Shown here piece after piece: positions 19,379 to 35,601 of a stretch of DNA of 45,269 bases. Source of the DNA: a bacterium (GTDB lineage: Bacteria > Patescibacteriota > Minisyncoccia > Phycocordibacterales > CALRBL01); assembly GCA_027487075.1 (NCBI GenBank), contig JAIYEG010000010.1:1-45269 (forward strand), read 5' to 3'. Under the pieces are notes generated by a model. That model did no database searches and was not told the origin of the DNA. It saw nothing but the letters and a program-made list of their open reading frames with translations. Position numbers and translations under genes: made by a program. Position 1 is the first letter of the stretch. Every line of letters starts with the position of its first letter.

Positions 19379-19393
19379 AAGAGTGTTTCTATA

Positions 19394-20269
19394 CTACTTA
19401 TTAGTACCTGACCAAGCAAGTTTCCTTTCTTCTGATTTTTGTTCTAGTTCTTTGATAATTTCACCAAGATCTTTCTCTTGTTCTGTCTCATTTTCACGAT
19501 ATCTAACAATGATTTTCCCATCCTTATTCTCAAATGTTGCAGACTCCAAAAAGTTTCTGGATCTACCATGTAAGTAGGTTTTTAAGTTCTCAGCAGATAT
19601 ATCTTTCCCCATAAGTGCAAGTACTGAAAAATCCGCAGTATTGTGTCCAACTTGAATATTCACGTACTCATGACCTGGGAAGTGACTTTCGGTTATTTCT
19701 CTCATACGCGCACTCAGTCTCAAATATCTTATAGCTTCTTCTTCAGGTGTACGCACAAAATCTGAAGGACGTATGCTGTCAGTATCAGTTTCAGGAAAAG
19801 CTTCATGAAGTTCGCCCTTAACTGATTCAAGCTCTTCTGGTTTTGCAACCCATGCAAGCATAGTGAAATACTCATTACCAGAGAATTTCTTGCCGTATTC
19901 TTTCCATGCAGGGACATAATCAGTGTCAGCCTTAAAACCGATTATAGACTGAGGTTGAACTTCTGTAACGACAAACTTTTTTGTAAAATTACTTTTAATT
20001 TCTGGTCTTTCTTTAAGTGTATTTATAGGAACAAATTCAACACTTGGATCTTCTGCACATAATTCTTGTAGCTCAGTTTCGATTTCGTTTCTAGTTTCAA
20101 CTGCTCTTCCGACATTTGATGGTGTCAGGTAGATAATTGACCCAAGAGGAGCGTTTTGAATTCTTTCATACAATTCAACAGCCTTCTCTCTTGCCTGTTC
20201 TCCACCTCTTTCTGATAGGGTTCCGTCTACATTCTTATCTCCGTGCCTAATTGTTTCAAAATTACCCAT
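19394..20269 (-). CDS. Histidine phosphatase superfamily protein
   Basis: IRHGD, LSERG..QA, S...RAVET and VGH motifs. Confidence 0.75.
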   Translation of the reverse strand: MGNFETIRHGDKNVDGTLSERGGEQAREKAVELYERIQNAPLGSIIYLTPSNVGRAVETRNEIETELQELCAEDPSVEFVPINTLKERPEIKSNFTKKFVVTEVQPQSIIGFKADTDYVPAWKEYGKKFSGNEYFTMLAWVAKPEELESVKGELHEAFPETDTDSIRPSDFVRTPEEEAIRYLRLSARMREITESHFPGHEYVNIQVGHNTADFSVLALMGKDISAENLKTYLHGRSRNFLESATFENKDGKIIVRYRENETEQEKDLGEIIKELEQKSEERKLAWSGTNK

Positions 20270-20270
20270 T

Positions 20271-21239
20271 CTATTTATTAGTTAAGGTTGTTATTGGCCT
20301 ACTTTGTGTAATATAAAATTTTCCTTTTTCAAAAGCCCATTCAATATCACAAGGAAAACCATAATGATTCTCAATCTTCAAGACAAGCTCAGATAATTCC
20401 AATATTTGATCTGTGGCCAAAACTTGTGATGAAGCTCGTGGCTCAGGAATATCTTTCCATTCTGTATTTCCATTTTCGTCTCTATATAAAGCTTTAACTT
20501 GAGTGTTAGTTGTGATATCAATTATATTTCTCGCATTCTTTTCGACGACATATGAATCAGGTGTTATCTCTCCTGATACAATTGCTTCTCCTAGACCAAA
20601 CCCCGCTTCGATAATAAGTTGATTTCTATCTTCAGATACAGGGTGTACTGAAAAAGCAATGCCTGATATTTCTGAATCAACCATCTTTTGCACCACAACA
20701 GCCACTGAGATGTGTGTTTTATGTAATCCTTTTTCAAACCTGTAGAATATTGCACGAGGAGTGAAAAGTGATGCCCAACAGTGTTTTACTTTTTCTAATA
20801 CATCATTTTTTGTAGTATTCAAATAACTATTGAGTTGTCCTGCCCATGCATGATCAACCCCATCTTCAGCGGTGGCAGAAGATCTGACTGCCACATACTC
20901 GGTATCAAGTTCGATAAAGGATGTTTCAATTTCTTTCTTAATATCTTCTAATATTTCGGCATTAAGAATGAGACCTTGAATTTTTTCAGAAGCCGCCTCA
21001 ATTGTATGAATTTCCTGATGATTTACCGAATCTAAAATAGCATCGATTTCATCAATCAGGTGACTTTCTTTTAGGAAGTAATCGAATGATGTAGAGAGGA
21101 TAACAAAACCAGAAGGAACAGGAATTCCAGCATTTGTCATTTCGCCAAGGGAAGCACCTTTGCCTCCAGCGATATCAGCATTATTTTTATTTAATTGTCT
21201 AAAATTACGAGTTAACTCCATATAATACAATTTTATCAT
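20271..21239 (-). CDS. Stand-alone PEP synthase/PPDK N-terminal ATP-binding domain
   Basis: AGGKGASLGEM, VAVRSSATAED, AGQ..SYLN, VVVQKMV, GLGEAIVSG, DIEWA, QSRPITT; the ORF ends at the domain boundary. Confidence 0.92.
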   Translation of the reverse strand: MIKLYYMELTRNFRQLNKNNADIAGGKGASLGEMTNAGIPVPSGFVILSTSFDYFLKESHLIDEIDAILDSVNHQEIHTIEAASEKIQGLILNAEILEDIKKEIETSFIELDTEYVAVRSSATAEDGVDHAWAGQLNSYLNTTKNDVLEKVKHCWASLFTPRAIFYRFEKGLHKTHISVAVVVQKMVDSEISGIAFSVHPVSEDRNQLIIEAGFGLGEAIVSGEITPDSYVVEKNARNIIDITTNTQVKALYRDENGNTEWKDIPEPRASSQVLATDQILELSELVLKIENHYGFPCDIEWAFEKGKFYITQSRPITTLTNK

Positions 21240-21310
21240 AAAACCACTCTCAATAAGTATCCCAAAGTTTCAAAACAGGAAATTTATACTTAGGCAACTA
21301 TTATAGATTT

Positions 21311-21372
21311 TGACAGGTCTCGGTACCACGAACCTGTGACATGACTGCTGGCCTCATCGGGTTCGGAACTTT
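21311..21372. repeat. Degenerate third copy of the island junction motif
   Basis: TGAC-agg-TCTCGG-tacca-CGAACCTG; GAACCT-11 nt-GCTG...AACTTT has the same spacing as at 31388 and 34939. Confidence 0.4.
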
Positions 21373-21440
21373 CTCCATCAAGCCCAGTAAGGGTTTCCAG
21401 AGATACTTGAGTATATCATTTTGACGTTCCTCGGAATGAG

Positions 21441-21785
21441 CTATTTCTTCAAAAAAGACCTTAAGGCTTTCTTCCAACCTAGCTTATGTATCTCCTGAAG
21501 AATCATCCATACTTCCCCTAAAAAATAAGCCCCCACCATTCCAACGAGAGACAATGTGAATCCTGCGTTAAAAGGATTTTCAAATAAGTTACCTGGGAGA
21601 TGAGCAACTTTTACGAGAAGATTCCAAAAACTAATAAGAACAATTCCCCAGAACGCACTAAAACCAATATATTCAAACTCACTGATAGACTTTTCAGATT
21701 TTGTCTTCTTTCTAAAGATCCAGACGCTCATAAAGCCGGCAAGTAGAACGTAGAAGTAAATATAGAAACTTTCAGTAGGTAACAT
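21441..21785 (-). CDS. Small 3-TM membrane protein (possibly DUF6338-like)
   Basis: Hydrophobic segments (YVLLAGF...EFEYIGFSAFWG); own TGgTATACT box 6 nt before the ATG. Confidence 0.6.
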   Translation of the reverse strand: MLPTESFYIYFYVLLAGFMSVWIFRKKTKSEKSISEFEYIGFSAFWGIVLISFWNLLVKVAHLPGNLFENPFNAGFTLSLVGMVGAYFLGEVWMILQEIHKLGWKKALRSFLKK

Positions 21786-21845
21786 TAGTCAAGTATACCA
21801 TTCGAGAAATAAGGGAAAAGCGACAAATGCGACACTGGTCAGTAT

Positions 21846-22334
21846 TTACTCTTTATCGGGATCCTCCTTACGTTCCGCTAACTTTTTTACTGCTTTTCTG
21901 TAAGCCCATTCTTGTGTTGGAGGTGTCAGTAAGACCAATTGATTATAATATTCAGAAATAGCTTTAACTTCTTTTAATAATTCACTTTCACTATAAAATG
22001 AAGCATACGAACAGTGAAGAGACCTAGCTCGATGTTTAATTACCGTAAAACTCTTTGCGGAGTTCAGGTTTTCATAGTACGACTTATGAGGACTAACGAT
22101 ACTACTTGTCGCCGTTATTACAGCAGACACTACAGTTACCCATCCCCACCAAGCAGGTATTACCTCACCAACAACAAGAAGTCCCGAAAGCGATGCTATC
22201 ACCGCTGGTAAAACTTCAAACCAAAATGCCATAGTTTGACTTCGAGACGCAAGAATATGATGAGCTTCGGCCGTGTGTCGCGCGTTATCTTCTATTGTCT
22301 GACATTCTCTTTTAAGATGATCTATATTATTCAT
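21846..22334 (-). CDS. SLATT-domain 2-TM effector (CBASS-type)
   Basis: Helical N-terminus (HTAEAHHILA), two TM helices and a helical C-terminus; overlaps the cyclase stop. Confidence 0.8.
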   Translation of the reverse strand: MNNIDHLKRECQTIEDNARHTAEAHHILASRSQTMAFWFEVLPAVIASLSGLLVVGEVIPAWWGWVTVVSAVITATSSIVSPHKSYYENLNSAKSFTVIKHRARSLHCSYASFYSESELLKEVKAISEYYNQLVLLTPPTQEWAYRKAVKKLAERKEDPDKE

Positions 22335-23682
22335 AATTTGCTCCGATTGGTACCAGTATTCTTCCTACTGCGACACACACACTATCCTTAACAATATAAC
22401 ATTCGACGTAATGCTCCCCATGATACAACGTACTCTCAGTCTTTGCATGCCTACCGTAATCAGGGGTAATTTCACCTCTTAGACCACCTGCCCTTTGAGC
22501 GTCTTCACCAAAATTTCTCACTTTCCAAAAAACGGAGTAAGGAGTAGGCACATTTGTTTCTCTTATTTTAAATTCAAGAGACTTACCCTTAAATAAAATG
22601 AACGAGGAAAGAGGATGTGCCAAAAAATCACCTAACCAGCCAGCACGAAATCCATTCGGAGTAACCAGTGCATCTATGGATAAAGTATGCTGCATATCTC
22701 GCTTAATCTGTATTCCACGATCAGTAATGAACTCCTCATCGCTTGAGGGATATGCTTGCGAGAGCTGCAATATCTTGGTTTCAAGAGTATCAACAAAGAT
22801 CTTGTCTTGAGCGATCAAAAAATCACCACCAAAGATCTTCTGCCATTCCAGTGATGCATCACGCATCTGATCACTTGATTCGTATTCGATTGCCTTTTCT
22901 GCCCTGTTGTATGCACTCTCGGTTTTCGAAAACCATTCTTCACCAAGACTCACAAAAGTATTGTAACCTATAGAAAAGACCGAGGAATTTCTTTTTGTCT
23001 TAAGAAACTCAAAGAATCCCAACATGAGTTCAGGGTAGAGTATATTCACCTGATTATTGAACTTCTGCTTAAGGTATTCAACAACTAGTATTTCAAGAAC
23101 GTAAGATTTGATAGGAACATTGCAATTTCTGATCCAAGACTTGAGCATCCTTATCAATGACTTGGTTCTATCTGTTTCAACACTTGAGTCTTTGACGTGC
23201 TTAATCTCTGCTAGAGGATCCCATATATGCCAAGAACCACCATTTTCAGTATCTGGTATTCGGAAAGTCTTTGCTTCGGTCTGCCAAGCCGGTAGAAGTT
23301 CAACCGTGTGTGATCCCTCGGAAAAACTTATAACTATCACCTTACCCCACGCACTGATCTTTTCGGTGGTAACAAACTTCTCTTTCAAAACTTCGCGTAT
23401 ATCTTGGAGCAGCTGAGACTGCTTATTTCCAGACAAGGAATTGTAACGATCGAACTCTTCATCAGGCATTCTAAAAATCACATCAATGTCCTTTGGCGGT
23501 CTGATATGAGTATGCTTACCATAAGAACCGATAAGTAATTTCGTGCTGCCGTCATACGACTGATTGGGATAATACTTCGAGTGCAATTTTTCGCACACGC
23601 TTTTTATCTTCGTCTTAGCGTCCTCTTTCTGAAGATCTGTAAGCTTAATCTTTTCGAGGAATGTCTTGAAGCTGGAGTCCAT
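22327..23682 (-). CDS. SMODS/CD-NTase cyclic oligonucleotide synthase with a C-terminal AGS-C domain
   Basis: GSYGKHTHIRPPKDIDV and VELLPAW (pol-beta NTase catalytic motifs); LIRMLKSW; WQKIFG; C-terminal FWKVRNFG..A....LRGEI...ESTLYHGEHYVECYIVKD (AGS-C). Confidence 0.9.
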   Translation of the reverse strand: MDSSFKTFLEKIKLTDLQKEDAKTKIKSVCEKLHSKYYPNQSYDGSTKLLIGSYGKHTHIRPPKDIDVIFRMPDEEFDRYNSLSGNKQSQLLQDIREVLKEKFVTTEKISAWGKVIVISFSEGSHTVELLPAWQTEAKTFRIPDTENGGSWHIWDPLAEIKHVKDSSVETDRTKSLIRMLKSWIRNCNVPIKSYVLEILVVEYLKQKFNNQVNILYPELMLGFFEFLKTKRNSSVFSIGYNTFVSLGEEWFSKTESAYNRAEKAIEYESSDQMRDASLEWQKIFGGDFLIAQDKIFVDTLETKILQLSQAYPSSDEEFITDRGIQIKRDMQHTLSIDALVTPNGFRAGWLGDFLAHPLSSFILFKGKSLEFKIRETNVPTPYSVFWKVRNFGEDAQRAGGLRGEITPDYGRHAKTESTLYHGEHYVECYIVKDSVCVAVGRILVPIGANYE

Positions 23683-23700
23683 AAAATCGATAGCTTAGAC

Positions 23701-23982
23701 CTATATGTTAGCGTTCATCCACTTAGTAACATCGGCATTAATACCGTAAGTACCCCAGTCATCTCCCGATACATCCATTACGAGTAGTTCGTCGTTACTG
23801 TCGATAAATTTATTCAAATGATCACGTACTGTAGCAGCACTACCTGTAGTTACGACAAGCCAAGTGGATTCAAGAGGCTTCGCCCAAGTACCAAGTTCTT
23901 TTATTTCTTTAATCAATCGGAGATACTCTGATGATGTTTCTCCTTTGTTCAAGTCATATGCGATTAAAAAAGTTTTGTTCAT
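23701..23982 (-). CDS. Small Cas2/VapD-like ferredoxin-fold protein
   Basis: FLIAYDL N-terminal strand with conserved Asp, ESTWLV and D.LLV; 93 aa. Confidence 0.65.
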   Translation of the reverse strand: MNKTFLIAYDLNKGETSSEYLRLIKEIKELGTWAKPLESTWLVVTTGSAATVRDHLNKFIDSNDELLVMDVSGDDWGTYGINADVTKWMNANI

Positions 23983-23988
23983 AAATAA

Positions 23989-24615
23989 TTAAGTTAAGTC
24001 TGGCAATGTTGCAACAATGACACCCTGTATAGAAAAGTTGTCAGACACGATGATCGGCTTATGTTCCTTATTGCTTGATCGTGGCTTGAGAACGACGAAG
24101 CCGTTCTCCTTAGTAAACTCTTTTACAGTAGCGGCATCATCAATTAAGGCGACAACTTTTTCGCCATTGCTTGCGTGATTCTGCTGTCGAACCAAAAGGA
24201 TGTCTCCGTCTTGGATTCCCGCTTGGTTCATAGAATCACCACTAGCCCTAAGCAAAAAATATCCGTTACCTGAGGAAACGATCGAACGGGAAACAGGAAT
24301 ATACGCCTCGACATTTTCTTCGGCCAGAATCGGCGAACCGCAAGAAACAAGACCCACGAGTGGCACCTCTACTGTGCGGGCATGATCTTCCTGCTCTTCT
24401 AGATCTTTCCTTACCTGAAGATCACCTTGGCTGTTACGCTGAATCCAACCCCTATTAATAAGGCTGTTGAGTAAAAGCAAAGCAGATCTTGGTGATTTAT
24501 ATCCGAGCTCGTCACGCAAATCTCTTACAGAGGGAGAAAATCCCTCGTGAACAATTGCGTTGCGAATGAAGCGAAATGCCTCTAACTCCTTCTCTTTTAG
24601 CTCTTTTTGACTCAT
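23989..24615 (-). CDS. lexA: LexA-family repressor (wHTH + S24 autoprotease)
   Basis: GFSPSVRDL...GYKSPRS, VPLVGLVSCGSP (Cys-Gly cleavage site), GDSM (Ser), TVK (Lys) and IQGVIV. Confidence 0.88.
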   Translation of the reverse strand: MSQKELKEKELEAFRFIRNAIVHEGFSPSVRDLRDELGYKSPRSALLLLNSLINRGWIQRNSQGDLQVRKDLEEQEDHARTVEVPLVGLVSCGSPILAEENVEAYIPVSRSIVSSGNGYFLLRASGDSMNQAGIQDGDILLVRQQNHASNGEKVVALIDDAATVKEFTKENGFVVLKPRSSNKEHKPIIVSDNFSIQGVIVATLPDLT

Positions 24616-24624
24616 TGTATGCTA

Positions 24625-24655
24625 AGTGTATCATACTGTTTACTTTTTTGCAAAC
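24625..24655 (-). promoter_or_regulatory. lexA promoter with an overlapping imperfect palindrome (candidate operator)
   Basis: Minus strand TTGCAA-17-TACACT with extended TG; GTTTAC-N6-GCAAAC (24638-24655) covers the -35 box. Confidence 0.55.
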
Positions 24656-24660
24656 TACTT

Positions 24661-25716
24661 TTATCGTCCAAACATTTCCTTGTAATCTGCATTGGTATGT
24701 TTCTTAAGAAAATCCTTCAAACTGACGAGTTCTTTTTCGGTTAGAGACTCATTTACGTCATCGTCTTTGTTCCAAGGAACCACACCAAGCTCTTTCTTAC
24801 TCTTACTCGGGTCTTTCTTCCATTCCTCTAACACCCTTTTCACCTTTGCGCACTCACCTGAAAGGTAGTCGTCATATTGCTTTCTCAGACTATTTGCTTC
24901 TACTTGCACACGAAGATAATTGGTAGGTATCTCGTTTTTCTCAAGCAAATTTTCGTATGCATATCTCTCTTGGTCTTTTGTGGCAAAAGGTAAACGGCGA
25001 ATGTGATTGGTGTCATACCCCAGAGGATCGAGAAACATGTACTGATGGTATTCAAGTTCGCTCTCGTCAGTAAAGTTATCCATCTTGCGTGCGGTACCCT
25101 GATCTATATGTCGCTCCATCGACATGAGCATAAGTTCTTCAAATGTCTTCCCTTTGGAGTGCTCCCATATCTCCGCCATGAGCTGCACTCGCATCCAAAT
25201 GAAGTCCTTATACTTTTCCCCTGGACCCCATAGCAAATCCCATGCTTGCTTCCGAAGGTTTTCATCGTCGCCGGTGATCGCCTTCTGGATCATTTTGTAA
25301 ATGTCGTTGTATGACATCGCATGGAACTTCTTTATCTGCATCCTTTCTTCTTCGGTAGATTCTCTTATACGCTGAGTCAGAGAAGCGGCGCTTTCAAAGA
25401 TCTTCCTGTTCTTCTCCATTTTTTCCTCGGTCTCTGCTTTGCGAGAAAAGACTGAGTTCACCGATTCAGCTACATAGAGAGCGGTGTCAGGTAAAACATC
25501 TTTTATTCCCCGAGCTTCATATTCATAAGCGCAGATTACAATATCGGGTTTTTCAATGATTCCTCTTTCTTTGCATTCAGCGAGAGTGCAAGAAATCACC
25601 TCACCTAGATCGTAGGTTTTAAGCAGATCATCATAATATTCTTTCCTCTTCAACTGTGATGGCGTTTCTTTCGTGATGCTAGGCATGAAATCCACCAAAA
25701 AAGTTTTTGGGTTCAT
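24661..25716 (-). CDS. Hypothetical charged helical protein
   Basis: 351-aa ORF, 7 nt from the upstream gene; no family recognised. Confidence 0.7.
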   Translation of the reverse strand: MNPKTFLVDFMPSITKETPSQLKRKEYYDDLLKTYDLGEVISCTLAECKERGIIEKPDIVICAYEYEARGIKDVLPDTALYVAESVNSVFSRKAETEEKMEKNRKIFESAASLTQRIRESTEEERMQIKKFHAMSYNDIYKMIQKAITGDDENLRKQAWDLLWGPGEKYKDFIWMRVQLMAEIWEHSKGKTFEELMLMSMERHIDQGTARKMDNFTDESELEYHQYMFLDPLGYDTNHIRRLPFATKDQERYAYENLLEKNEIPTNYLRVQVEANSLRKQYDDYLSGECAKVKRVLEEWKKDPSKSKKELGVVPWNKDDDVNESLTEKELVSLKDFLKKHTNADYKEMFGR

Positions 25717-25723
25717 GGCCTAC

Positions 25724-26209
25724 CTACCGATCACTCTGCTGAACCCCCGTCACCACACCGCCATCAAAGTAGACATAATCATCTCCATAGATCCACTGTT
25801 CGTGGGCAACATTTGCGGTGGTGGTCTTATTTACCCTTTCTGGGTTTCCAATCGACAGCTTCACCTGCTCTTTTGTCATTCCAAGAGCAATTTCCTTATT
25901 TACAACACGATCACACATCGTCTTACTCCAATCCACATGGCTGGCACACAACTTGCCTGCTGGTGAAGCTTTCCATGCAATAGCATCTGCTTCCGCTTGT
26001 TCAGCTTGTGCCTTTTCCGATGCCGCTTGTTTTTCCGCTACTCGCTTTTCAGCATCTATTAAGGCTTGTGACTTAGGAGCTTCAACTGCTTTTTCATCCG
26101 GAACCAAGATATTCAAAATACCACCCAAAAGAAAAAATCCAACTACACCGACCAACACCACTTTACCGAGAGTCCATTTGCGGACTACTTTTTGATTTGA
26201 ATTATTCAT
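25724..26209 (-). CDS. Single-TM exported protein with a BamE/SmpA-like C-terminal domain
   Basis: N-terminal TM segment, Ala/Glu linker, and IALGMTKEQV..SIGNP...EQWIY...YVYFDGGVV. Confidence 0.65.
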   Translation of the reverse strand: MNNSNQKVVRKWTLGKVVLVGVVGFFLLGGILNILVPDEKAVEAPKSQALIDAEKRVAEKQAASEKAQAEQAEADAIAWKASPAGKLCASHVDWSKTMCDRVVNKEIALGMTKEQVKLSIGNPERVNKTTTANVAHEQWIYGDDYVYFDGGVVTGVQQSDR

Positions 26210-26213
26210 TTTT

Positions 26214-26350
26214 TTGTAGCGAGTTTCTAATAATTGGCAGACAAAAAGCCCTCCGCCAAGGCGATGGTCCGAAGACCACCCATAGCCGTTTCCAGCTATG
26301 ACTCGCTACAAGCACACCTGACGAAGGGTTCTTTATCTTGTAGCGAGTTT
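26214..26350 (-). ncRNA. Structured leader/antisense RNA resembling phage C4/CI immunity RNAs
   Basis: 13-nt direct repeats (26214-26226, 26338-26350) with their complement (26301-26312) inside a multibranch structure that has GAAA and UUCG tetraloop hairpins. Confidence 0.6.
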
Positions 26351-26669
26351 TATTGACCATATCCTTCAAGACAAGCTTGAGGGGGTTAGGTCCACATATT
26401 CAGTTGTACGGTACATAATAGCAAAAAACGCTATCATTTGGCACCCTATCGCATTTCAGGGGTTCCGCGAAGCCTTGTTGCCAACAGGGCTTGCATGAAG
26501 CACCCCAGAGGGTATAAAATACAACCAACCTAAATTGTCTACCTATAAGGCTCTGTAACTGTTCGGAAAGAAATTGGTCGATTATCTAAATTTCTTTTCC
26601 TTCAAACAGAGCTTTTCTCTTGTCTACCAAAACAGCACCTAAATGGATTAGTCATTAACTAAATCCACA

Positions 26670-27965
26670 ATGAAAAAACTTTCATGGTGCACCGAACAGC
26701 GAGTAGTGAAAGACCTGCTCCCTTTCAAGCACAACCCTAGAAAGATGTCAGAGAAACAGATCTCTGATCTCAAGAAATCTATTAACAAGTTTGATTTGGT
26801 AGAAATTCCTGCGATTGATCGTGACAACAGGATCATTGCTGGTCATCAGCGTCTGGCGGTCATGCAACTCATCGGACGAGGCGAAGAAACAATTGATGTA
26901 CGTGTGCCGAACCGCAATCTTACCGAAACAGAATACAAACAGTATCTAGTAACCAGCAACAAAGTACATGGCGATTGGGATGAGAATATAATCTACGAAT
27001 ATTTCGAGACTGATCTGCTCCTTGAGTCTGGCTTCGACATAGAAGAAGTCACCAACCTTTTTTCTGAACTTCTCGAAACCGAGGATGATGAGTTCGATAT
27101 AGATACAGAGATTAAGAAGATACAGAAGCCGAAGTCGAAACTTGGTGACTTGTACCAACTCGGTCCACATAGACTTCTTTGTGGAGATTCAACTAATCCT
27201 GAGACAGTAAAAAAGGTTGTCGGAAAAAGTCGGATAGATATGATCTATTGCGACCCTATCTACAATATCAATCTCTCCTACGCGAAAGGTATTGGCGGAA
27301 CAAAGAATTACGGAGGTTCTGCAAATGATACAAAGACTGAAATAGAGTACGAGACATTCCTCACCAAGACGATCGAGAATGCTCTAGCGGTATCGAATAA
27401 GGACACGCATGTTTTCTACTACTGCGACGAAACCTATGTTCCCCTTATCGCAAACATATATGCGAAGTTGGGTATCAAGTTCCGACGTATCTGCATATGG
27501 CTCAAGGGTATCGCAAATCCGACCCCACAAATTGCTTTCTCGAAGGTATATGAGCCGTGTGTATACGGGACCAGAGGAAAACCATACCTTTCACCCAACC
27601 ATCACAACTTCGATGAAGTAATGAATAAGGACATCGGCACAGGCAATCAGATGATTGAAAACTTCATGGACATGTTCGACGTGTGGGCCGTACAAAGACT
27701 TGCTGGAAATAAGTATGAACATCCGACACAAAAGCCTGTAACCCTTCACGACAAGCCTATCCGAAGATGTACCAAGGTTGGTGACAATATCCTGTCTCTG
27801 TTTGGCGGTAGCGGTGGCGAGCTTCTTGCGTCCCATCAGCTCAAACGCAATTGCTTCATGGTCGAGATGGATCCCGTTTTTGTCGATCTTATCATCATGC
27901 GCTATGAGCATTTCACTGGTGGCAAAGCGACGCTAATCAGCAACGGACATGAGAAAGAACGATAG
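26670..27965 (+). CDS. ParB-like N-terminal domain + N4/N6 DNA methyltransferase (phage-type)
   Basis: NPRK, IIAGHQR (ParBc); GPHRLLCGDST, DPIYN, HPTQKP, LFGGSG and EMDPVFVDLII.R. Confidence 0.85.
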   Translation: MKKLSWCTEQRVVKDLLPFKHNPRKMSEKQISDLKKSINKFDLVEIPAIDRDNRIIAGHQRLAVMQLIGRGEETIDVRVPNRNLTETEYKQYLVTSNKVHGDWDENIIYEYFETDLLLESGFDIEEVTNLFSELLETEDDEFDIDTEIKKIQKPKSKLGDLYQLGPHRLLCGDSTNPETVKKVVGKSRIDMIYCDPIYNINLSYAKGIGGTKNYGGSANDTKTEIEYETFLTKTIENALAVSNKDTHVFYYCDETYVPLIANIYAKLGIKFRRICIWLKGIANPTPQIAFSKVYEPCVYGTRGKPYLSPNHHNFDEVMNKDIGTGNQMIENFMDMFDVWAVQRLAGNKYEHPTQKPVTLHDKPIRRCTKVGDNILSLFGGSGGELLASHQLKRNCFMVEMDPVFVDLIIMRYEHFTGGKATLISNGHEKER

Positions 27966-28407
27966 AAAAGCCATATTGGATGCTTTGGAAGAAATTCCCT
28001 TCATAGACAGGGCTTGCAGGAAAATAGGAATACATCGGTCAACATTCTATCGGTGGCAAGAATCAGACCCAGAATTTCGAAAGAAAACAAACAAGGCACT
28101 TGCCCTTGGAAGAGAAAGCCTGTGCGAACTTGCTGAATCAATGCTGGTCAAAAAGATCAAGGATGGAGAAACCAATGCTATTAAATTCTGCTTGCAGAAT
28201 AACAGCCCGATCTACACACCGAAAAGAACGGTCTTTGTGTTGCCAGAAAAGAAGGACACCTACAGTCCCGAAAAAGGATGCGACACGTGTGGCCTCAAAC
28301 CTCTCTCAAAAGAGGTGGGTGACAAGCTTCGAAAGAATATCGAGGTATTCTTCGGCAAGGCAGTTCCCGAAAAGGAATACGACCCGACAGACGAGTTGGG
28401 TGTGTAG
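27949..28407 (+). CDS. HTH protein, terminase-small-subunit-like
   Basis: ACRKIGIHRSTFYRWQESDPEF and AESML...G...AIKF.L. Confidence 0.7.
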   Translation: MRKNDRKAILDALEEIPFIDRACRKIGIHRSTFYRWQESDPEFRKKTNKALALGRESLCELAESMLVKKIKDGETNAIKFCLQNNSPIYTPKRTVFVLPEKKDTYSPEKGCDTCGLKPLSKEVGDKLRKNIEVFFGKAVPEKEYDPTDELGV

Positions 28408-28459
28408 GCATTAATCACCTCCTTGACTTCCCCACCCCATCCGTCATCAATGGGTATAA

Positions 28460-29791
28460 ATGGAAGCACGAACAAATGCTCAAATAGGCAGTCCCAATAT
28501 CGTACCCGCAGAACGGGTGCGATATTGCCTGTATGCGAGAAAGAGTTCCGAGGATAGCAGCGAGAAGCAAGCTTTATCAGTTGATTCTCAGGTAAAGGAA
28601 ATGCTGGCGATAGCGGAACGAGACAATCTTGAGATTGTGGATATTCGACGTGAGTCACATTCTGCAAAAACCTCTGGGCAAAGACCGGTATTCAATGAAT
28701 TAATTCGAGATCTTAACACTGGAAGATATACAGGTATTTTGACGTGGGCGCCAGACAGACTTTCTCGTAATGCGGGAGACTTGGGAGCCTTGGTCGATCT
28801 AATGGATGAGAAGAAATTGCATCAGATCAAAACATATGGACAATCATTTCAAAACTCACCGAACGAAAAGTTTTTATTGATGATTCTCTGTTCTCAGGCA
28901 AAGCTTGAGAACGACAACAAAAGTATCAATGTGAAGCGAGGGCTTCGTACTCGATGCGAGATGGGACTATGGCCTGCCCCTGCTCCAATGGGATATCTAA
29001 ATGAGATGAGAGCTGATCGCAAAGGTTACGTATACATTGATCCTGAGCGTGGTCACATTATTAAGAAAATGTTCGAAAAAGTTGCATATGAGAAATGGAG
29101 CGGAAAGAAGGTATTCCACTGGCTCAAGTTCGAGTTGAACTTCAAGACACCTAACGGAAACAAAGGACTGACCTTGAGCAATATTTATCTTCTTCTCCAA
29201 AACGACTTCTACTACGGATCATTTGAGTATCCAAGAAAAAGCGGACTTTGGTACAAAGGAATTCACGAACCTCTAATTTCCAAAGAATTATTTGATCAGG
29301 TTCAACAGCAAGTTAAAAGTCAGATCATCAGGGTACAGGACAAGGAGTTTGCTTTCACAAAGATTATGAGCTGCGGTCTATGCGATTCAGGAATTACAGC
29401 TGATGAAAAATTCAAGAAGCAGAAGAACGGGAATATCCATCGATATGTCTATTACGGATGTACCAAGAAAAAGGATCACAACTGCAAATGCGGATATATT
29501 CGGGAGGACGAGCTAATCGAACAGCTTGTGGGATTGATGGAAACGATAGATTTGGATGAGATAGGCATCAAGGAGAAGATCAGGGCTGAGGTGGAGCGTG
29601 TAAAGAAGTTCCAGAGGGTTATCTTGGGCACTAGAGAGAAGATCGAAGTGAGAGATATAGATATACGAAACTATGCGAAATACGTCCTGATGGAAGCTCC
29701 TGATTTGGAGAAAAGAGAGTTGTTGGGATGTTTGAAGAGTAAGATAAGACTAAGTAACAAGAAAATATTTTTGAAAATTAATTTGGATTAA
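28460..29791 (+). CDS. Large serine recombinase (resolvase + recombinase + Zn-ribbon)
   Basis: YARKSSED (catalytic Ser), RPVFN, DRLSRN, PAPMGY, HEPLISKELFD and CGLC...YYGC...C. Confidence 0.93.
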   Translation: MEARTNAQIGSPNIVPAERVRYCLYARKSSEDSSEKQALSVDSQVKEMLAIAERDNLEIVDIRRESHSAKTSGQRPVFNELIRDLNTGRYTGILTWAPDRLSRNAGDLGALVDLMDEKKLHQIKTYGQSFQNSPNEKFLLMILCSQAKLENDNKSINVKRGLRTRCEMGLWPAPAPMGYLNEMRADRKGYVYIDPERGHIIKKMFEKVAYEKWSGKKVFHWLKFELNFKTPNGNKGLTLSNIYLLLQNDFYYGSFEYPRKSGLWYKGIHEPLISKELFDQVQQQVKSQIIRVQDKEFAFTKIMSCGLCDSGITADEKFKKQKNGNIHRYVYYGCTKKKDHNCKCGYIREDELIEQLVGLMETIDLDEIGIKEKIRAEVERVKKFQRVILGTREKIEVRDIDIRNYAKYVLMEAPDLEKRELLGCLKSKIRLSNKKIFLKINLD

Positions 29792-30278
29792 ATCTTGAAT
29801 CCCAAAGCATTGAGTTAGTTCTATCTCCGTTATTTTTAAAAAAAGTAAGTTTTACAAAAGAAAGAAATTCTTTTAAATCAATACTTCTAGAAATGTACCT
29901 AACCCCCGAGTGTATTGATGATACATGGGGCTCGTGCTGCTCATCATTTTGATAATGAAAATTAAAATATAAACAATCATCCGACATTTTATTTGAAGGT
30001 TTATGCTCAAGAAGATAATCATACTCATCTGAAGAAAATATATATGTATAACCTTCAACCTTTTTTTCTTTTAGATTATAGATTTCAAAAAAAGAAAGAT
30101 AGCCAACTTTATCTTTAAGCAACATACCTTCCGCACGTTGGTGACTAATTTCGTGAGGAAAATAAATAATATTCCCAACTTTTTTCATAGAATTAATAGC
30201 TCTTTCAGGATCTTGAAAAATATCCTTATACTCATTTAATGCTATTTTAATTTCTGTTACTCTTTTATCTATAGACAT
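29778..30278 (-). CDS. Putative toxin, TumE/DUF6516-like
   Basis: TGATG coupling to the upstream gene; GYTY...H..PH...IDLKEFLSFV pattern; very AT-rich. Confidence 0.4.
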   Translation of the reverse strand: MSIDKRVTEIKIALNEYKDIFQDPERAINSMKKVGNIIYFPHEISHQRAEGMLLKDKVGYLSFFEIYNLKEKKVEGYTYIFSSDEYDYLLEHKPSNKMSDDCLYFNFHYQNDEQHEPHVSSIHSGVRYISRSIDLKEFLSFVKLTFFKNNGDRTNSMLWDSRFNPN

Positions 30279-30661
30279 CACACATGTAAAACTTTGTAGA
30301 TGCTGTTCCACTCATAAAATTCTGGTCTACTTTGTAGGATTCCTTTTTCCCATTCTTCGTGAAATTCCTTAGAATTTTTATTAAATTTATGTTCATAGGT
30401 TTTTAATTTCTCATAAAGACTAGTATGAGTGAGTATATCTTGGTGATTATAAACAATTTTATTAAATCGATTTAGATCATTGATCGTAAATATTGACCCA
30501 GAAGTTTCTCCTGTTCCTAGAGCCACAGTTAGATTACTATTGTCGCTTGGTGGAATAAATGAGGCAGAGATAGAAGAAGCACCAACAGCAAAAAGCTGAT
30601 TTGGGGCATTAAATGTCTCTATGCCAGAAGTTCCGTTCGCAATATAAATAAATTTATCCAT
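30278..30661 (-). CDS. Putative TumA-like antitoxin with an N-terminal low-complexity extension
   Basis: C-terminal LKTYEHKFNKNSKEFHEEWEKG.....EFYEWNSIY resembles TumA-type antitoxins; about 70 aa of S/T/G/A-rich N-terminus. Confidence 0.5.
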   Translation of the reverse strand: MDKFIYIANGTSGIETFNAPNQLFAVGASSISASFIPPSDNSNLTVALGTGETSGSIFTINDLNRFNKIVYNHQDILTHTSLYEKLKTYEHKFNKNSKEFHEEWEKGILQSRPEFYEWNSIYKVLHV

Positions 30662-30665
30662 AAAT

Positions 30666-31325
30666 CTATATTAGCTTACCTAGAACCACTGGTAAATCAT
30701 TATAGAGATTAGTTGTTTTCTCTTTAAAATCAGTTAGTGTTGGGAGTGCTGAATCTATAAAATTTGAGTTTTGAGATACTTGGATATTTCCTTGCGGTAT
30801 AACAGATGCACCATCTGCAAACTTAGGTTCAATTCTAAGATCATTTCTAATTCCATCTTTTGTTTTATAAATAAATCGAACAGCACTTCCAATAAGCTCT
30901 CCGGCATCACCGAACGCTTCTTTTTGTATAAATTTATCTCTCAAAAACTGAGAGGAATCTTCAGCATCAGTTTCGAACGTGGAAATAATATTGAAACCAT
31001 AAGCTTTCAATTTATCAAAACTTAATATTTCATATACTGCTCGTGCTAGTTGAGTAAATTTCGCAAGGTCTCTTGAAGCATATCCAGTGACTTTATTATC
31101 TGAAATAATAATTTTTTCTCTTTCTGCTGTAATATTAATTTGATTTGTTGAATCAAATATCAACATTAGCTCAGGAAATTGAGTGGTGATTGGTTTACTT
31201 GAATCTCCAAATATTTCAATGATTTTTGATTTAATTTTATCAGCATTTAAAGTCCCTGGCTCAACAGGCTTTTCGGGAACAAGAACAAAATTTGTTAACA
31301 GTGTTTCGTGGTTAGTGATTTTCAT
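30666..31325 (-). CDS. Hypothetical protein, TIGR04255-like
   Basis: 219 aa alpha/beta protein with a central KAYGFN strand; first gene of a tight three-gene operon. Confidence 0.45.
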   Translation of the reverse strand: MKITNHETLLTNFVLVPEKPVEPGTLNADKIKSKIIEIFGDSSKPITTQFPELMLIFDSTNQINITAEREKIIISDNKVTGYASRDLAKFTQLARAVYEILSFDKLKAYGFNIISTFETDAEDSSQFLRDKFIQKEAFGDAGELIGSAVRFIYKTKDGIRNDLRIEPKFADGASVIPQGNIQVSQNSNFIDSALPTLTDFKEKTTNLYNDLPVVLGKLI

Positions 31326-31387
31326 TACTAGATAATTATACTTTACTATTTTAACATTCTCTAATTAGAAGATAAACGAAGGATTTC

Positions 31388-31443
31388 GACCCTCATCGGA
31401 CTCCGAACCTATCTCAACTTGGCTGCCGGTCTGCGACTCTAAC
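31388..31443. repeat. Direct repeat of the tRNA-Gln 3' end plus flank (att-like junction)
   Basis: 34/38 identical to 34939-34976 and 46/56 to 34939-34994. Confidence 0.85.
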
Positions 31444-31500
31444 TTTTATCAATTATGTGGCTCTAAATATGCACCTTGATTCAGATTTTTCCTAGGAGCA

Positions 31501-31524
31501 CAGGTTCGATTCCAAAGGGGGTCA
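31501..31524. repeat. Inverted degenerate copy of the junction motif
   Basis: CAGGTTCG-ATTCCAAAGGGGGTCA versus CAGGTTCGGAGTCCGAGAAGGGTCA (reverse complement of 34938-34962). Confidence 0.55.
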
Positions 31525-32268
31525 TTATTTACCATTCCAATGTAAAACTTTTTTCTCAAAAGCTAACAGAAGTAGGTTGAGCAAATATCCAATGATTCCC
31601 GCAAGCAAAATAGCCGCGTACATTGTTTTGATCTCGTAGGTAATTTGAGAATCAATAATTCTACGCCCAATTCCTGTAGGTGTTCCGATAAACATCTCAG
31701 TAACAACGATAACTACCAAAGATAAACTTACAGAACTTCGGAGACCGATGAATGTCTGAGGCAAACTTTCCCAGAAAAGTATCCATCTAAATATTTGAGC
31801 TTTTGTTGCCCCCATAATCTTGGCTGCAAGCACCCTTGATTTCTTAGCATGCATCACGCCATAAGCTGTATTAAAAACGATGATAAGCATCGAGGAAAAA
31901 GCGGCAACAGCAATCTTAGAGGTATCAGTTACTCCAAACACCAGAAGGAATAGTGGAAACATGGCTGTGGCTGGTGTTGATCGGAAGAAGTCGATTATAA
32001 ACTCAAAACTTCTGTATAGCTTTTCAGACCGTCCAAGCCATAAGCCAAGCGGTAAGCCAATAACTAAAGCAATCATAAAAGAGATCATCACACGTCCCAG
32101 TGTTGCCAATAAGTCTGGGATAATTGAACCTTTTATCAATAGCCTGCCAAGCTCACTTATGGTTTCAAAAGGGTCGGGCAAGAAAAAGGAATCTACCAAA
32201 TGAAGCCGAGCGACAATAGCCCAGACTGCAATTAAAACTATTGGTCCTATAAATGAATACTTTCTCAT
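31525..32268 (-). CDS. NitT/TauT (SsuC/TauC-like) ABC permease
   Basis: FFRSTPATAMFPL, the EAA-loop AAKIMGA, and VVTEM. Confidence 0.9.
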   Translation of the reverse strand: MRKYSFIGPIVLIAVWAIVARLHLVDSFFLPDPFETISELGRLLIKGSIIPDLLATLGRVMISFMIALVIGLPLGLWLGRSEKLYRSFEFIIDFFRSTPATAMFPLFLLVFGVTDTSKIAVAAFSSMLIIVFNTAYGVMHAKKSRVLAAKIMGATKAQIFRWILFWESLPQTFIGLRSSVSLSLVVIVVTEMFIGTPTGIGRRIIDSQITYEIKTMYAAILLAGIIGYLLNLLLLAFEKKVLHWNGK

Positions 32269-33014
32269 AGGTTTGCAGCTTTTTGGAAAGCAGTTAGGAC
32301 CTTATCTTTTACTTGGTGAAATTGCTCAGTTTTAAGAGACTGAAGACTCCGAGGATAAGGTAAAGGGTTCTCAATCGTCTCAAGAGTCTGTGTTGGCTTT
32401 TTTGATAAGACAACAATCTTATCAGCCAGATGAACTGCTTCCTCAATATTGTGAGTAATGAGAAGAATTGTAGGCTTAAATGTCAGATAGTATTTCTGCA
32501 AGTGTTCTCGCAAACGGAGATTGTTTTCATAATCCAAAGCAGAAAAAGGCTCATCAATAAAGAGTACATTGGGCTCAGTTATGAGTGCTCTCATGAAAGC
32601 AACAATTTGCTGCTGTCCGCCACTTAATTCGTAAGGATAGTGGTCCCAATTAATCTTAAACTCGAAAAGCTTTTGGAGCTTTTCTACTCTCTCCTTTATT
32701 TCTGATTTGGTCTTGCCTTGAATTTGAAGTGGCAATGCTACATTTTCAAAATTGGTTCGCCAAGGTAATAACGATTCACGATAATTTTGGAAGATATAAC
32801 TAAATTGAAAATGATTGAAGTTTTCAATGTGGTAATTGCCTCCGTCTTTAGGAATAATACCCGACAGGATATTTAGTAAAGTTGATTTGCCTGATCCGTT
32901 AGGTCCGAAGATTGCAGTTATTTTTCCTTCCTCAATATCAAGACTGAAGTCTTGAAAGACTTCAGTCTGATTAAATGACTTTCTTAGGTTATTAACTGCA
33001 ACGGCTTTTGTCAT
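32265..33014 (-). CDS. NitT/TauT ABC ATP-binding protein
   Basis: GPNGSGKST, LSGGQ, DEPFSALD and ITH. Confidence 0.92.
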   Translation of the reverse strand: MTKAVAVNNLRKSFNQTEVFQDFSLDIEEGKITAIFGPNGSGKSTLLNILSGIIPKDGGNYHIENFNHFQFSYIFQNYRESLLPWRTNFENVALPLQIQGKTKSEIKERVEKLQKLFEFKINWDHYPYELSGGQQQIVAFMRALITEPNVLFIDEPFSALDYENNLRLREHLQKYYLTFKPTILLITHNIEEAVHLADKIVVLSKKPTQTLETIENPLPYPRSLQSLKTEQFHQVKDKVLTAFQKAANL

Positions 33015-34021
33015 TAGTTACTTGGAGAATAAATGAGTTGCTTAAAATCCATCTTTCCATTGACTACACCCCATTTCGTGAAGATGTCATAGAATTTTTG
33101 AGTTTCAGTTATGTCTTTCTCATCAAGCTCGTTATACATCTTGAATAAGAGAATTGGTGCTTTGGTGATTGTAGTGTCATCAAGCTGAGTGTAGCCTTTG
33201 AGATACTGCCTATCCGCATCAGGATTCTCTCGAATGTCCTTCATTGCTTTTGCAATAGCGTTCATTACTTTTTTTGTAGTATGTGGGTTCTCTTTAGCAA
33301 AATCTACTCGTATAATTCCTGCTCCTGCATAGAACGGATTAGCAATGTATGTAGCTGCTGCAAATGGCACGAGCTCCTGACCGATACGCTTTGCCTTAAC
33401 AACTGTAGGAACTGGCTCAATTATGAGTGCAGCATCAATGTCACCAGTAGCAAGAGCTTGAGCTTGGAGACCAAGAGCGATTTCAACAATCTTAACATCC
33501 TTGTCATATGTGAGATTGTTTTTATCAAGTATCTCACGAGCGATTGTCTGCCACTGAATAGTGCCAGCCATAATACCGAGCTTCTTTCCCTTCAAATCTT
33601 GAATGGTTTTAATAGGGCTATCTTTCTTTACGACAATGGCATCGTTCTGAACAGTTGAATCGTCCCCACCTGCCACTGCATAAATTTTGAGCTTACCTGG
33701 ATTTTTGAAGTCGGCAATTCCAGCAATACCTGTTGCCCCGCCTGGGTGAGCTAGATCAACTTGACCTTGCAAGAGAGCATCAATGATTTGATTAGGAGCT
33801 TCAAATTTAACAAGCTCAACATCCAGACCTTCATCCTTGAAATAACCTTTTTCAATAGCGACATATACAGGCAATCCTTGCACATTTGGCAGACTCGCAA
33901 TTTTTACCTTGGTCGCTTCTGTTGCCACATACTGCTTCACTTCATTATGGTTGGAATAAAACAGCGCACCCGCAAGGCAGAGTACGAAAATAATGCTATA
34001 GGTGATGGCTTTTTTGTTCAT
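33014..34021 (-). CDS. SsuA/THI5-like ABC substrate-binding protein
   Basis: N-terminal anchor, YVAIEKGYFKDEGLDV, DLKGKKLG and ALATGDIDA. Confidence 0.88.
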   Translation of the reverse strand: MNKKAITYSIIFVLCLAGALFYSNHNEVKQYVATEATKVKIASLPNVQGLPVYVAIEKGYFKDEGLDVELVKFEAPNQIIDALLQGQVDLAHPGGATGIAGIADFKNPGKLKIYAVAGGDDSTVQNDAIVVKKDSPIKTIQDLKGKKLGIMAGTIQWQTIAREILDKNNLTYDKDVKIVEIALGLQAQALATGDIDAALIIEPVPTVVKAKRIGQELVPFAAATYIANPFYAGAGIIRVDFAKENPHTTKKVMNAIAKAMKDIRENPDADRQYLKGYTQLDDTTITKAPILLFKMYNELDEKDITETQKFYDIFTKWGVVNGKMDFKQLIYSPSN

Positions 34022-34060
34022 ATGCTCTAGATTATTTATATCTAGCAATAATGTAAATAG

Positions 34061-34101
34061 TGTTGTACAACATTGACAACAATGGAGAAAAGGAGTACGC
34101 T
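34061..34101 (+). promoter_or_regulatory. trmB promoter with an adjacent palindrome
   Basis: TGTTGTACAACA palindrome (34061-34072), then TTGACA-17-TACGCT-6 nt-ATG. Confidence 0.6.
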
Positions 34102-34107
34102 GGGCCC

Positions 34108-34920
34108 ATGATTACCAAAAAACTCGCTGCGATCGGTCTCACTGAAGCCGAAACCGACACGTTTATTTTCCTGGTAGAAAATCCTGCACAGACGGCAGGA
34201 ACGATTGCCAAGAAAACAGGTATCTCGCGCCCTTCCCTTTATGGATATCTAAAGAATCTCCAAGAAAAAGGCTTGGTCACCCAGTCCCAGAAGGATCGTG
34301 TAAAGATATTCTCTGCGGCTGCAAAGGAGAAAGTTGACTTGATTTTTGATGGGCACATAAAGGAATTCTCGGAAGCAAAGAAAGCTGTCGAACAAGTCTT
34401 CAGTGAAATTCAGATGGGTAAAAAGCCCGTCTCAGGGCCACGGGTGCAGATATTCGAAGGAAGGAAGGAAATGCAGCACCTCACACGGGATCTTCTCCTC
34501 TACAGAAACATTACCTCTCAATCATATTGGCCAATCAAGTCCATGCTTGAAACTCTAGGTGACTCCTTTTTTAAGGAGTTTAACAAAGAAAGAGTTAAGA
34601 GAAATATTTATATAGATGCGATCTGGCCAGAAAAGCAGACCATTGATATGAAAAAGTTTCCATTCATGGGAGCCGGTGGTGATTTCCTAAGAGAAGTAAG
34701 AATTGCCCCAAAGGAAATTGATTTTTCTATGGGCTACTGGATTTACGAAAATAAAGTTTCTTTTGTTTCTTCACAAAAAAGCAATTTCGGCTTTATCATT
34801 GAAAACAAAGAATTTGCTGACATGATGGCCTCACAATTTAAAGTAATGTGGAAACTTTCCAAGAAGAAACCTGTTACTCAAGAGGAATCAGCGAAGTTGT
34901 TTAGAGAGATGCTGAACTAA
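34108..34920 (+). CDS. TrmB-family transcriptional regulator
   Basis: IGLTEAE...IAKKTGISRPSLY..LKNLQEKGLV, VQIFEG, IYENKVSF and II.N.EFA; divergent from the ABC operon. Confidence 0.85.
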   Translation: MITKKLAAIGLTEAETDTFIFLVENPAQTAGTIAKKTGISRPSLYGYLKNLQEKGLVTQSQKDRVKIFSAAAKEKVDLIFDGHIKEFSEAKKAVEQVFSEIQMGKKPVSGPRVQIFEGRKEMQHLTRDLLLYRNITSQSYWPIKSMLETLGDSFFKEFNKERVKRNIYIDAIWPEKQTIDMKKFPFMGAGGDFLREVRIAPKEIDFSMGYWIYENKVSFVSSQKSNFGFIIENKEFADMMASQFKVMWKLSKKKPVTQEESAKLFREMLN

Positions 34921-34938
34921 GCCTTTCTATATTTATAT

Positions 34939-34994
34939 GACCCTTCTCGGACTCCGAACCTGCCTCAACTTGGCTGGGGGACAGGGACTCGAAC
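34939..34994. repeat. att-like site overlapping the tRNA-Gln 3' end
   Basis: Matches 31388-31443 and contains the TCGGA-C-TCCGA palindrome. Confidence 0.85.
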
Positions 34995-35044
34995 CCCGAT
35001 ACTAGCGACCAAAACGCTATGTCCTACCATTAGACGATCCCCCA
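34971..35044 (-). tRNA. tRNA-Gln(TTG), CCA encoded
   Basis: TGGGGGA/TCCCCCA acceptor stem, TAGCG-TT TTG GT-CGCTA anticodon arm, GTTCGAGTC T-arm and GCCA end. Confidence 0.96.
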
Positions 35045-35211
35045 ATTATTGTTTTATTTACATATACCACGTACCCACCCAGCTATCATGCAGAGCTTTG
35101 TAGTGCTCTGCCTCACGAATATGCGGAGATTTCCATTATACATATTTCCGATATTTTTTCTATTTGTCATTTCCCTTCAGTATGCTAGTTTTCTACTGAA
35201 ACATATCACCT

Positions 35212-35600: not shown

Positions 35601-35601
35601 G

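Follow-up and report, generated by a model that had tools for sequence, protein, structure and literature searches.

Foreign gene units at attachment-type sites of a large serine recombinase, probably accreted in tandem behind tRNA-Gln in a small-genome member of the Patescibacteriota

The locus described here belongs to a bacterium of the Patescibacteriota (order Phycocordibacterales, GenBank assembly GCA_027487075.1) and lies in the first 45,269 nt of a 187.6-kb contig (JAIYEG010000010.1), a stretch that was analysed whole and is called the window below; the assembly amounts to 676 kb in 12 contigs and is 92% complete. Its landmark is a tRNA-Gln gene (anticodon UUG), the sole tRNA located by ARAGORN within the window, and its subject is a row of foreign-looking gene units to the left of that gene, together with the large serine recombinase (LSR) that one of them encodes. 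On the right lies core genome with a GC content of about 0.50 (0.50-0.56), represented by genes for a clamp-loader subunit, Dus, a PGA_cap protein, a D-Ala-D-Ala carboxypeptidase and an FtsQ-type protein, whereas on the left GC drops blockwise to 0.28-0.47, the range of the units. Proceeding leftward from the tRNA, the order is site A, a module of TrmB and ATP-binding cassette (ABC) transporter genes, site B, a 10-kb LSR element with a cyclic oligonucleotide-based antiphage signalling system (CBASS), relic C, and a phosphoenolpyruvate (PEP)-utiliser module. An original prediction, made from the DNA letters alone, had described this layout of modules with a recombinase in only one of them, and we find it as described. 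The principal features are as follows.

34971..35044, minus strand: tRNA-Gln (anticodon UUG), the landing gene (ARAGORN; Rfam tRNA, 56.8 bits)
34935..34995, minus strand: site A, the true tRNA 3' end, then left arm, near-palindrome TCGGA-G-TCCGA and right arm (repeat and nhmmer)
31525..34920, no single strand: unit 1, without recombinase (Pfam)
31500..31526, plus strand: inverted partial site copy (nhmmer, weak)
31383..31448, minus strand: site B, a pseudo-tRNA-Gln 3' end, then a complete site (46/56 to A; nhmmer)
21441..31325, no single strand: unit 2, the LSR element, about 10 kb with about 14 genes (Pfam, PHROG, Rfam)
21305..21364, minus strand: probable site relic C, covering the third copy of the original prediction (gapped and ungapped scans, 12-site consensus)
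17936..21239, minus strand: unit 3, without recombinase (Pfam, GC)

Positions 31388-31443 and 34939-34994, within sites B and A respectively, are identical at 46 of 56 bases (28/32 in the flank and 18/24 in the tRNA part); the 34/38 originally quoted for the flank and CCA part equals the 28/32 of the flank plus six identical bases. In a scan of both strands of the 676-kb genome (about 1.35 million positions), the next best ungapped match to either copy reaches 34/56, and a gapped scan of 13,506 genome segments agrees that the A/B repeat stands apart, so that the predicted main repeat holds in full. A site model for nhmmer, constructed from six copies in four other genomes and free of window sequences, likewise recovers both copies when scanned across the genome (B at E 5.6e-14 and A at E 7.5e-11, with the next match at 0.078), a check of the kind proposed with the prediction.

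The wider distribution of these sequences, in genomes designated here by our own labels, bears on their nature. The left arm and centre of A recur right behind tRNA-Gln in G022, G045 and G053, partly in G058 and weakly in G027, all of other families than the host, and the sequences part just past the centre; G002, a genome of the host's own genus, has a different tRNA-Gln flank. In site B, the acceptor strand of the fossil tRNA is of the CCGGCAG type, as against CCCCCAG in the host's own gene; this type is known in tRNA-Gln of other lineages and is unable to pair with the 5' strand of the host tRNA. Moreover, the left part of B resembles distal copies from two other families (G168 and G210). 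The foreign fossil tRNA end, taken together with this likeness, argues that a module of 60 bp travels with mobile DNA. Both arms are conserved across the twelve site copies from which a 12-site consensus was drawn, and every junction would therefore constitute a complete site, a predicted arrangement that differs from the hybrid sites usually left by serine integrases.

The candidate enzyme for these sites is the 443-residue LSR of unit 2. Its catalytic domain (PF00239, E 5.5e-19, residues 24-169) is followed on the C-terminal side by a Recombinase domain (PF07508, 2.9e-13) and a Zn_ribbon_recom domain (PF13408, 4.6e-08), and the protein matches a PHROG integrase at 6e-58. It aligns with SprA of SPbeta (E 8e-15, residues 23-372), and also with the A118 integrase (in its C-terminal part) and that of TP901-1. 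In LSRs the serine of a Y-x-R-x-S stretch is the catalytic nucleophile; the serine of the N-terminal Y-x-R-x-S in this protein aligns with that of SprA. It is the sole intact LSR in the assembly, and the 3' end of its gene faces site B and the tRNA. Other recombinases in the assembly are one LSR fragment (contig C5) and one tyrosine recombinase (contig C4). The fragment (C5, 98399-98959) is 60% identical to residues 250-437, contains one in-frame TGA, and sits between genes for tRNA-Phe and tRNA-Arg.

Homologues of this LSR occur in 198 of the 301 genomes of the order (E <= 1e-10; the count includes the unpublished G253). Nine loci were picked because an LSR was known to lie near a tRNA-Gln match, and 19 more were fetched without that knowledge. 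Among the preselected loci, the LSR is convergent with tRNA-Gln (UUG or CUG), at distances of 0.17-10 kb, in eight of nine (G045, with 87% identity, G040, G024, G055, G003, G052, G028 and G032), the ninth, in G060, being cut by a contig end. The blind set yielded the same arrangement in 4/19 (G164, G171, G294 and G136), while of its remaining 15 loci two have the LSR beside tRNA-Ser and 13 show no tRNA on the 3' side of the LSR within about 6.7 kb. Convergence with tRNA-Gln, as seen here, is thus found in 12 relatives in total, so part of the LSR family, including the nearest relative of the window LSR, appears to target tRNA-Gln. The proposal that the repeats are attachment-type sites of the middle unit's LSR family is supported by this association.

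Relatives also help to place the crossover. In five of them the element ends are marked by direct repeats that occupy nucleotides 17-35 after the CCA and start at 17-22 nt: 16/16 in G028 (ends 9.4 kb apart), 14/15 in G052 (5.2 kb), 15/16 in G164 (6.4 kb), 13/13 in G040 (18.8 kb) and 12/12 in G136 (13.3 kb). Past the distal repeat, G040 shares sequence with G136, and G028 with G052. Since the five repeats agree in position and sequence is shared beyond the distal one, the crossover is best placed in the flank and not in the tRNA; from the alignment, we infer that the matching stretch in the window would be TCGGA-G-TCCGA with the right arm.

Two further observations concern the tRNA-Gln neighbourhood itself. 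In G168 (L205, 4056-4207), G166 (L207, 1932-2113) and G049 (L214, 1656-1780), 130-180 nt intervene between tRNA-Gln and the site; this stretch holds an inverted copy of the tRNA T-arm and ends at a direct copy of the last 15-17 nt of tRNA-Gln with CCA and the site, and it has the appearance of a scar left by another kind of element, one that would cut inside the tRNA. In the same-genus genome G002 (L074), the clamp-loader gene, whose usual place is immediately upstream of tRNA-Gln, is found in inverted orientation 6.6 kb downstream of it, and a 13-nt T-arm copy is present 60 nt past tRNA-Gln, which suggests an inversion at this locus.

The cargo behind tRNA-Gln differs in every relative annotated or compared; content at the locus is variable, and not the invariant set that would have told against the original prediction. 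Between the tRNA-side end and the LSR, G045 carries a restriction-modification system and a 488-aa protein, G024 copper genes, G040 RadC and methylases, and G028 an M23 peptidase. Arrays comparable to that in the window were found elsewhere. In G168, two full sites only 887 bp apart enclose a single 735-bp gene of the endonuclease/exonuclease/phosphatase family. In G166, two sites 3.5 kb apart surround Mrr, DUF2726 and small open reading frames (ORFs), and the genome, which is 99% complete, gave no match to the LSR Recombinase domain. In G210, a 2.2-kb unit combines NUDIX and 2-oxoglutarate oxygenase genes with an LSR stump, of which just the final 92 codons are left (75% identity). Units that lack a recombinase but are flanked by full sites therefore recur, here and in these three other genomes, and to this extent the claim of recombinase-free units bounded by sites has been sustained; given the stump in G210, at least one of them arose by decay. 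No two arrays or positions were found to share an identical cassette.

A broader scan with a 15-mer at up to two mismatches over 401 genomes proved too noisy to use, a reversed control pattern also matching many genomes. Ten loci were fetched after it, eight of them from hits with 0-1 mismatch together with the paired hit in G166, and G057 and G049 otherwise; the eight comprise four full sites (G168, G210, G166 and G281) and four weak partial ones (G350, G309, G104 and G363).

The genes of the three units in the window, from the tRNA side leftward, are these.

34060-34920, plus strand: TrmB-family regulator (unit 1; Pfam)
33014-34048, minus strand: ABC NMT1-type binding protein (unit 1; Pfam)
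32265-33014, minus strand: ABC ATPase (unit 1; Pfam)
31525-32268, minus strand: ABC permease (unit 1; Pfam)
29778-31325, minus strand: three unknown ORFs (unit 2)
28460..29791, plus strand: LSR, 443 aa (unit 2; Pfam, PHROG)
27949-28407, plus strand: TerS-like helix-turn-helix (HTH) protein (unit 2)
26670-27965, plus strand: ParB-DNA methylase (unit 2)
26263-26392, minus strand: LOOT RNA (unit 2; Rfam RF03000, 77 bits against a gathering threshold of 46.4)
24661-26209, minus strand: two unknown ORFs (unit 2)
23989-24615, minus strand: LexA/S24 repressor (unit 2)
23701-23982, minus strand: phrog_1090 protein (unit 2)
22327-23682, minus strand: CD-NTase (unit 2)
21846-22334, minus strand: 2TM effector (unit 2)
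21441-21785, minus strand: 114-aa ORF (unit 2)
20271-21239, minus strand: PPDK_N-type ATP-binding protein (unit 3)
19394-20269, minus strand: unknown ORF (unit 3)
17936-19378, minus strand: protein with PEP-utiliser mobile domain (unit 3)

Unit 1 (GC 0.35-0.42) thus comprises four genes on two strands, including its own regulator, and its ABC genes have their nearest relatives in other candidate phyla, at 49-80% identity. In unit 2, the CD-NTase and the 2TM effector make up a two-gene CBASS; the backbone of LSR, HTH protein and ParB-methylase is common to G024, G040, G055 and G032, and the LexA-like repressor is present in G040 and G032 as well. Unit 3 has a GC of 0.35-0.39, which rises to 0.47 beyond 17.6 kb. 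No tyrosine recombinase was detected among the ORFs of the window, eleven of which have no Pfam match at E 0.001 and give no tyrosine recombinase match even at E 0.5, and a reading based on a tyrosine integrase was rejected for want of such a gene in the window.

The LOOT RNA is divergent from the gene row of ParB-methylase, HTH protein and LSR. It was found in five of six related LSR elements scanned (L067, 13758-13885; L090, 8207-8322; L062, 12921-13047; L065, 10072-10200; L068, 4926-5057) and not in that of G055; in three relatives it is placed upstream of the LSR gene, at a distance of 87-170 nt and on the opposite strand. ORFs of 78-88 aa at the LOOT position in G028 and G032 overlap the RNA and are probably spurious, and a homologous 88-aa ORF occurs in G052, outside the sequences scanned. 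A literature search found nothing on the LOOT motif.

Farther from the tRNA, a Schlafen-type helicase gene (a weak Nhi-like PADLOC match) and one for a MazG-like pyrophosphatase occupy 8847-10809 at a GC of 0.30-0.33, forming a further foreign, defence-like islet. At 13707-14966 lies a gene for an archaeal-type S-adenosylmethionine synthetase (PF01941); G022 has a 35%-identical PF01941 homologue together with an AHSA1 gene a few kb downstream of its tRNA-Gln, and by that parallel this part of the window may be native flank.

Beyond A and B, the copies are weak. The third copy of the original prediction, at 21311-21372, was missed by the 15-mer at up to three mismatches and by the ungapped scan at a threshold of 33/56, and was absent from the nhmmer matches with either model at E <= 50-100; its gapped pieces, 21318-21336 and 21352-21375, rank 19-39 among the 13,506 segments. 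Taken in register as 21305-21364, it is oriented like A and B, stands at the junction of units 2 and 3, and matches 24 of 38 conserved columns of the 12-site consensus after one gap placed by hand. It agrees at 32/60 with one foreign-genome copy, a score reached by six positions of the genome including A and B, and at 25-31/60 with the other six query copies, where 18 to 4,273 genome positions score equally well. What stands of the predicted third copy, then, is a probable relic in register at a module joint; as a genome-wide match it is not significant, and C is at best a decayed site. A 9-mer common to the core of B and 21352-21360 was considered as a separate core and rejected, since it probably lies within the fossil tRNA part of C; a separate half-site-like stretch is found nearby at 21423-21437.

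The inverted partial copy, predicted at 31501-31524, is present at 31500-31526, just outside the stop codon of the permease gene and 57 nt from site B, although its match is feeble (E = 6 and rank 4 genome-wide, or E 6.7 with the window-free model). An exact inverted 14-mer of the site core upstream of tRNA-Gln in G164 (L077, 4410-4423; E 0.004) recalls it. At the outer side, a half-site-like stretch beyond unit 3 (17914-17930) was seen by eye only. At 11935-11947 there is an exact 13-mer of the A core and right arm, with a 7-mer ahead of it that is likewise found after CCA in A; the 13-mer coincides with a GC step from 0.37 to 0.47, falls within the 3' end of a 567-aa ORF (11845-13548), has an E of 0.04 within the window, and could be the outer end of the island or a chance match.

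With the sites, the association of the LSR family with tRNA-Gln, the variation in cargo and the similar arrays of other genomes before us, we regard the locus as probably a tandem accretion island, in which foreign units have been joined behind tRNA-Gln through one LSR site of about 50-60 bp. The attachment point of the LSR would be the first 17-35 nt after the CCA, the tRNA itself remaining uncut; each copy would supply both arms around the near-palindromic centre, the distal copies adding a fossil 3' end of tRNA-Gln, and each junction would so resemble a fresh landing site that more units could be added there. Unit 2 would represent a complete phage-like element, with its LSR, ParB-methylase, TerS-like protein, LexA-type repressor, LOOT RNA and CBASS cargo. 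Units 1 and 3 are most likely site-bounded remnants, or modules mobilisable in cis or in trans, by analogy with cis-mobilisable elements (CIMEs) and with ccr-less units of the staphylococcal cassette chromosome (SCC). The order in which the units arrived, and any mobility they may now possess, are inferred.

Several results weigh against this interpretation. Contigs from four runs of four studies, one run perhaps being the source sample, were aligned to 16500-36400: they bridge C (three contigs), B (two) and A with the tRNA (two) in the same order and at >=99% identity, and they disclose no excision joint, circle junction or skipped unit, although contigs drop rare forms. Loose contig ends occur at 22553, 29834, 29949, 30093, 30775, 31092, 33674 and 34816 and elsewhere, but none at A, B or C. 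The end repeats of the relatives are singly weak (E 2.6e-4 to 0.27), and in all five mapped relatives the repeat is confined to 12-16 bp and the left arms differ, which makes a 56-bp repeat atypical both for the family and for serine integrases. The far end of unit 2 is insecure, since C does not reach significance across the genome. Finally, four loci that hold relatives of the ABC genes contain no TrmB, tRNA-Gln or site. One of these has a distant LSR (26% identity) 3 kb off. The idea of the ABC operon as a site-bounded mobile cassette in its own right gained no support, its four nearest relatives being without a site.

Among the alternatives, a strict version of the original proposal, in which units 1 and 3 never possessed a recombinase and were captured sequentially in trans as one-site cassettes, after the manner of an integron, is possible but doubtful. 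It accords with the fit of A and B to the family consensus on both arms, with the single 735-bp gene between two full sites in G168, with the site-bounded Mrr unit in G166 and the lack of a detected LSR domain in that genome, and with the foreign fossil tRNA end of B, by which the site would have travelled with mobile DNA. Yet the contigs reveal neither circles nor alternative junctions, the LSR stump of G210 demonstrates that decay yields the same pattern, no cassette recurs identically in two arrays or positions and the relatives of the ABC operon lack the site, and unit 1, with its own regulator and divergent genes, is unlike integron cassettes. No evidence emerged that the units were integrated, or can be moved, in trans, nor did the proposed search for circular or excision junctions, confined as it was to contigs of the four runs, which drop rare forms, yield any.

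A bolder extension of the accretion model, which we hold only tentatively and think rather improbable, would make all four arms alike, so that attB, attP, attL and attR are nearly the same and the LSR is without built-in direction; any unit could then be excised as a one-site circle and reinserted at any copy in any host, with the LOOT RNA as a possible control RNA. If this were true, the locus would belong to a genuine serine-recombinase cassette platform spread across ultra-small bacteria.

It is unlikely, in our estimation, that the whole array is a single composite LSR element, with A as its tRNA-side end, an outer end at about 17.9 kb or at 11935-11947, and B and C as internal relics. In relatives G045, G024 and G040, cargo does fill 3.4-10 kb from the tRNA-side end to the LSR, and the 13-mer of the A core with its preceding 7-mer falls at the GC step noted above; that 13-mer, however, is contained in an ORF and has an E of 0.04 in the window. 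Moreover, B is a complete site that outscores A, and the 1.6 kb that separate it from the LSR 3' end are within the 0.17-1.7 kb observed in five of the eight preselected relatives, and AHSA1 genes downstream of the site or tRNA-Gln in G022 and G210 hint that 17.0-17.5 kb is native flank.

That the repeats are not recombination sites at all, being instead remnants of a tRNA-Gln gene duplication or a conserved element (RNA or terminator) downstream of that gene, is very improbable: several families conserve the left arm behind tRNA-Gln and B keeps a T-loop-like stretch, but the copies match nothing in Rfam, their fold energies are those of shuffled sequences (z -0.39, 0.25 and -0.22), the flank of A is shared by distant families while that of same-genus G002 differs, the acceptor strand of B cannot pair with the host tRNA, and copies stand at element ends beside LSR genes. 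On the first two of these negative results, the RNA-element reading was rejected.

The accretion interpretation invites comparison with known systems. Integrons rely on an integrase of the tyrosine family, attC sites that fold as single strands, and cassettes of one promoterless gene each, all oriented alike. The present locus resembles them in being an array of gene units separated by recombination sites beside one recombinase, but differs in having no tyrosine integrase in the window, no folded attC, and multi-gene units on two strands with their own regulator; it is not integron-like in the defining features, and the label of a serine-recombinase integron analogue does not fit. In the accretion of CIMEs and integrative and conjugative elements in streptococci, recombinase-less units keep both end sites and use the enzyme of a neighbour, a tyrosine recombinase, in the context of conjugative elements; the likeness here extends to the recombinase-less, site-bounded units, and not to the class of enzyme or to conjugation. 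SCC composites, too, include recombinase-less units.

The closest published parallels, to the extent that the cited accounts describe them, involve LSRs. Islands at ssrA in Dehalococcoides are arranged in tandem and bounded by repeats of the gene's 3' end, with a CcrB-like LSR adjoining the gene-side end (PMC3146451); an integration module, parB included, is present in 16 of 31 islands, the rest being proposed as cis-mobilisable (PMC3146451). Our locus is like these (DsiB) in its tandem arrangement at a tRNA-like gene, its reverse-strand LSR at the gene-side end, its parB gene in the integration module and its strain-variable cargo (PMC3146451). It is unlike them in its target, a tRNA-Gln flank as opposed to the T-loop of tmRNA, and in its repeat of about 56 bp with both arms, as opposed to 20 bp; we saw no second, small serine recombinase next to the LSR, the host has a very small genome, and the cargo serves defence and transport (PMC3146451). 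SCC elements and the Enterococcus cassette chromosome (ECC) possess direct repeats of about 50 bp that contain inverted repeats, with several distal sites per island (PMC6222049). SCC/SCCmec composites and the ECC (CcrAB) share with our locus units, here presumably LSR-driven, at the 3' end of a conserved gene, but their target is rlmH, they rely on two recombinases and their movement is experimentally proven, whereas the present system is known from sequence (PMC6222049). Tycheposons of Prochlorococcus stack at tRNA genes, newcomers pushing older elements inward, and leave partial tRNA copies and broken integrases; 910 of 937 have a tyrosine recombinase, and their repeats are the tRNA part itself (10.1101/2020.12.28.424599). 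Stacking at a tRNA and adaptive, modular cargo are common to both, the recombinase here being an LSR and there mostly of the tyrosine class (10.1101/2020.12.28.424599).

The logic of stacking has therefore been described before, in Dehalococcoides (PMC3146451) and in SCC/ECC (PMC6222049), and what is new is the host group, the scope and the detail. A literature search on serine recombinases integrating in the Candidate Phyla Radiation found nothing on this system and returned only papers on inoviruses. Few routes of gene exchange are known for ultra-small uncultured bacteria, and the locus with its parallels points to one LSR family, landing behind tRNA-Gln, as a main point of entry, through which genes for defence (CBASS, restriction systems, Mrr), metal resistance and transport, among others, arrive. 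The site consensus and the LSR together provide a search key for the accessory genes of these lineages.

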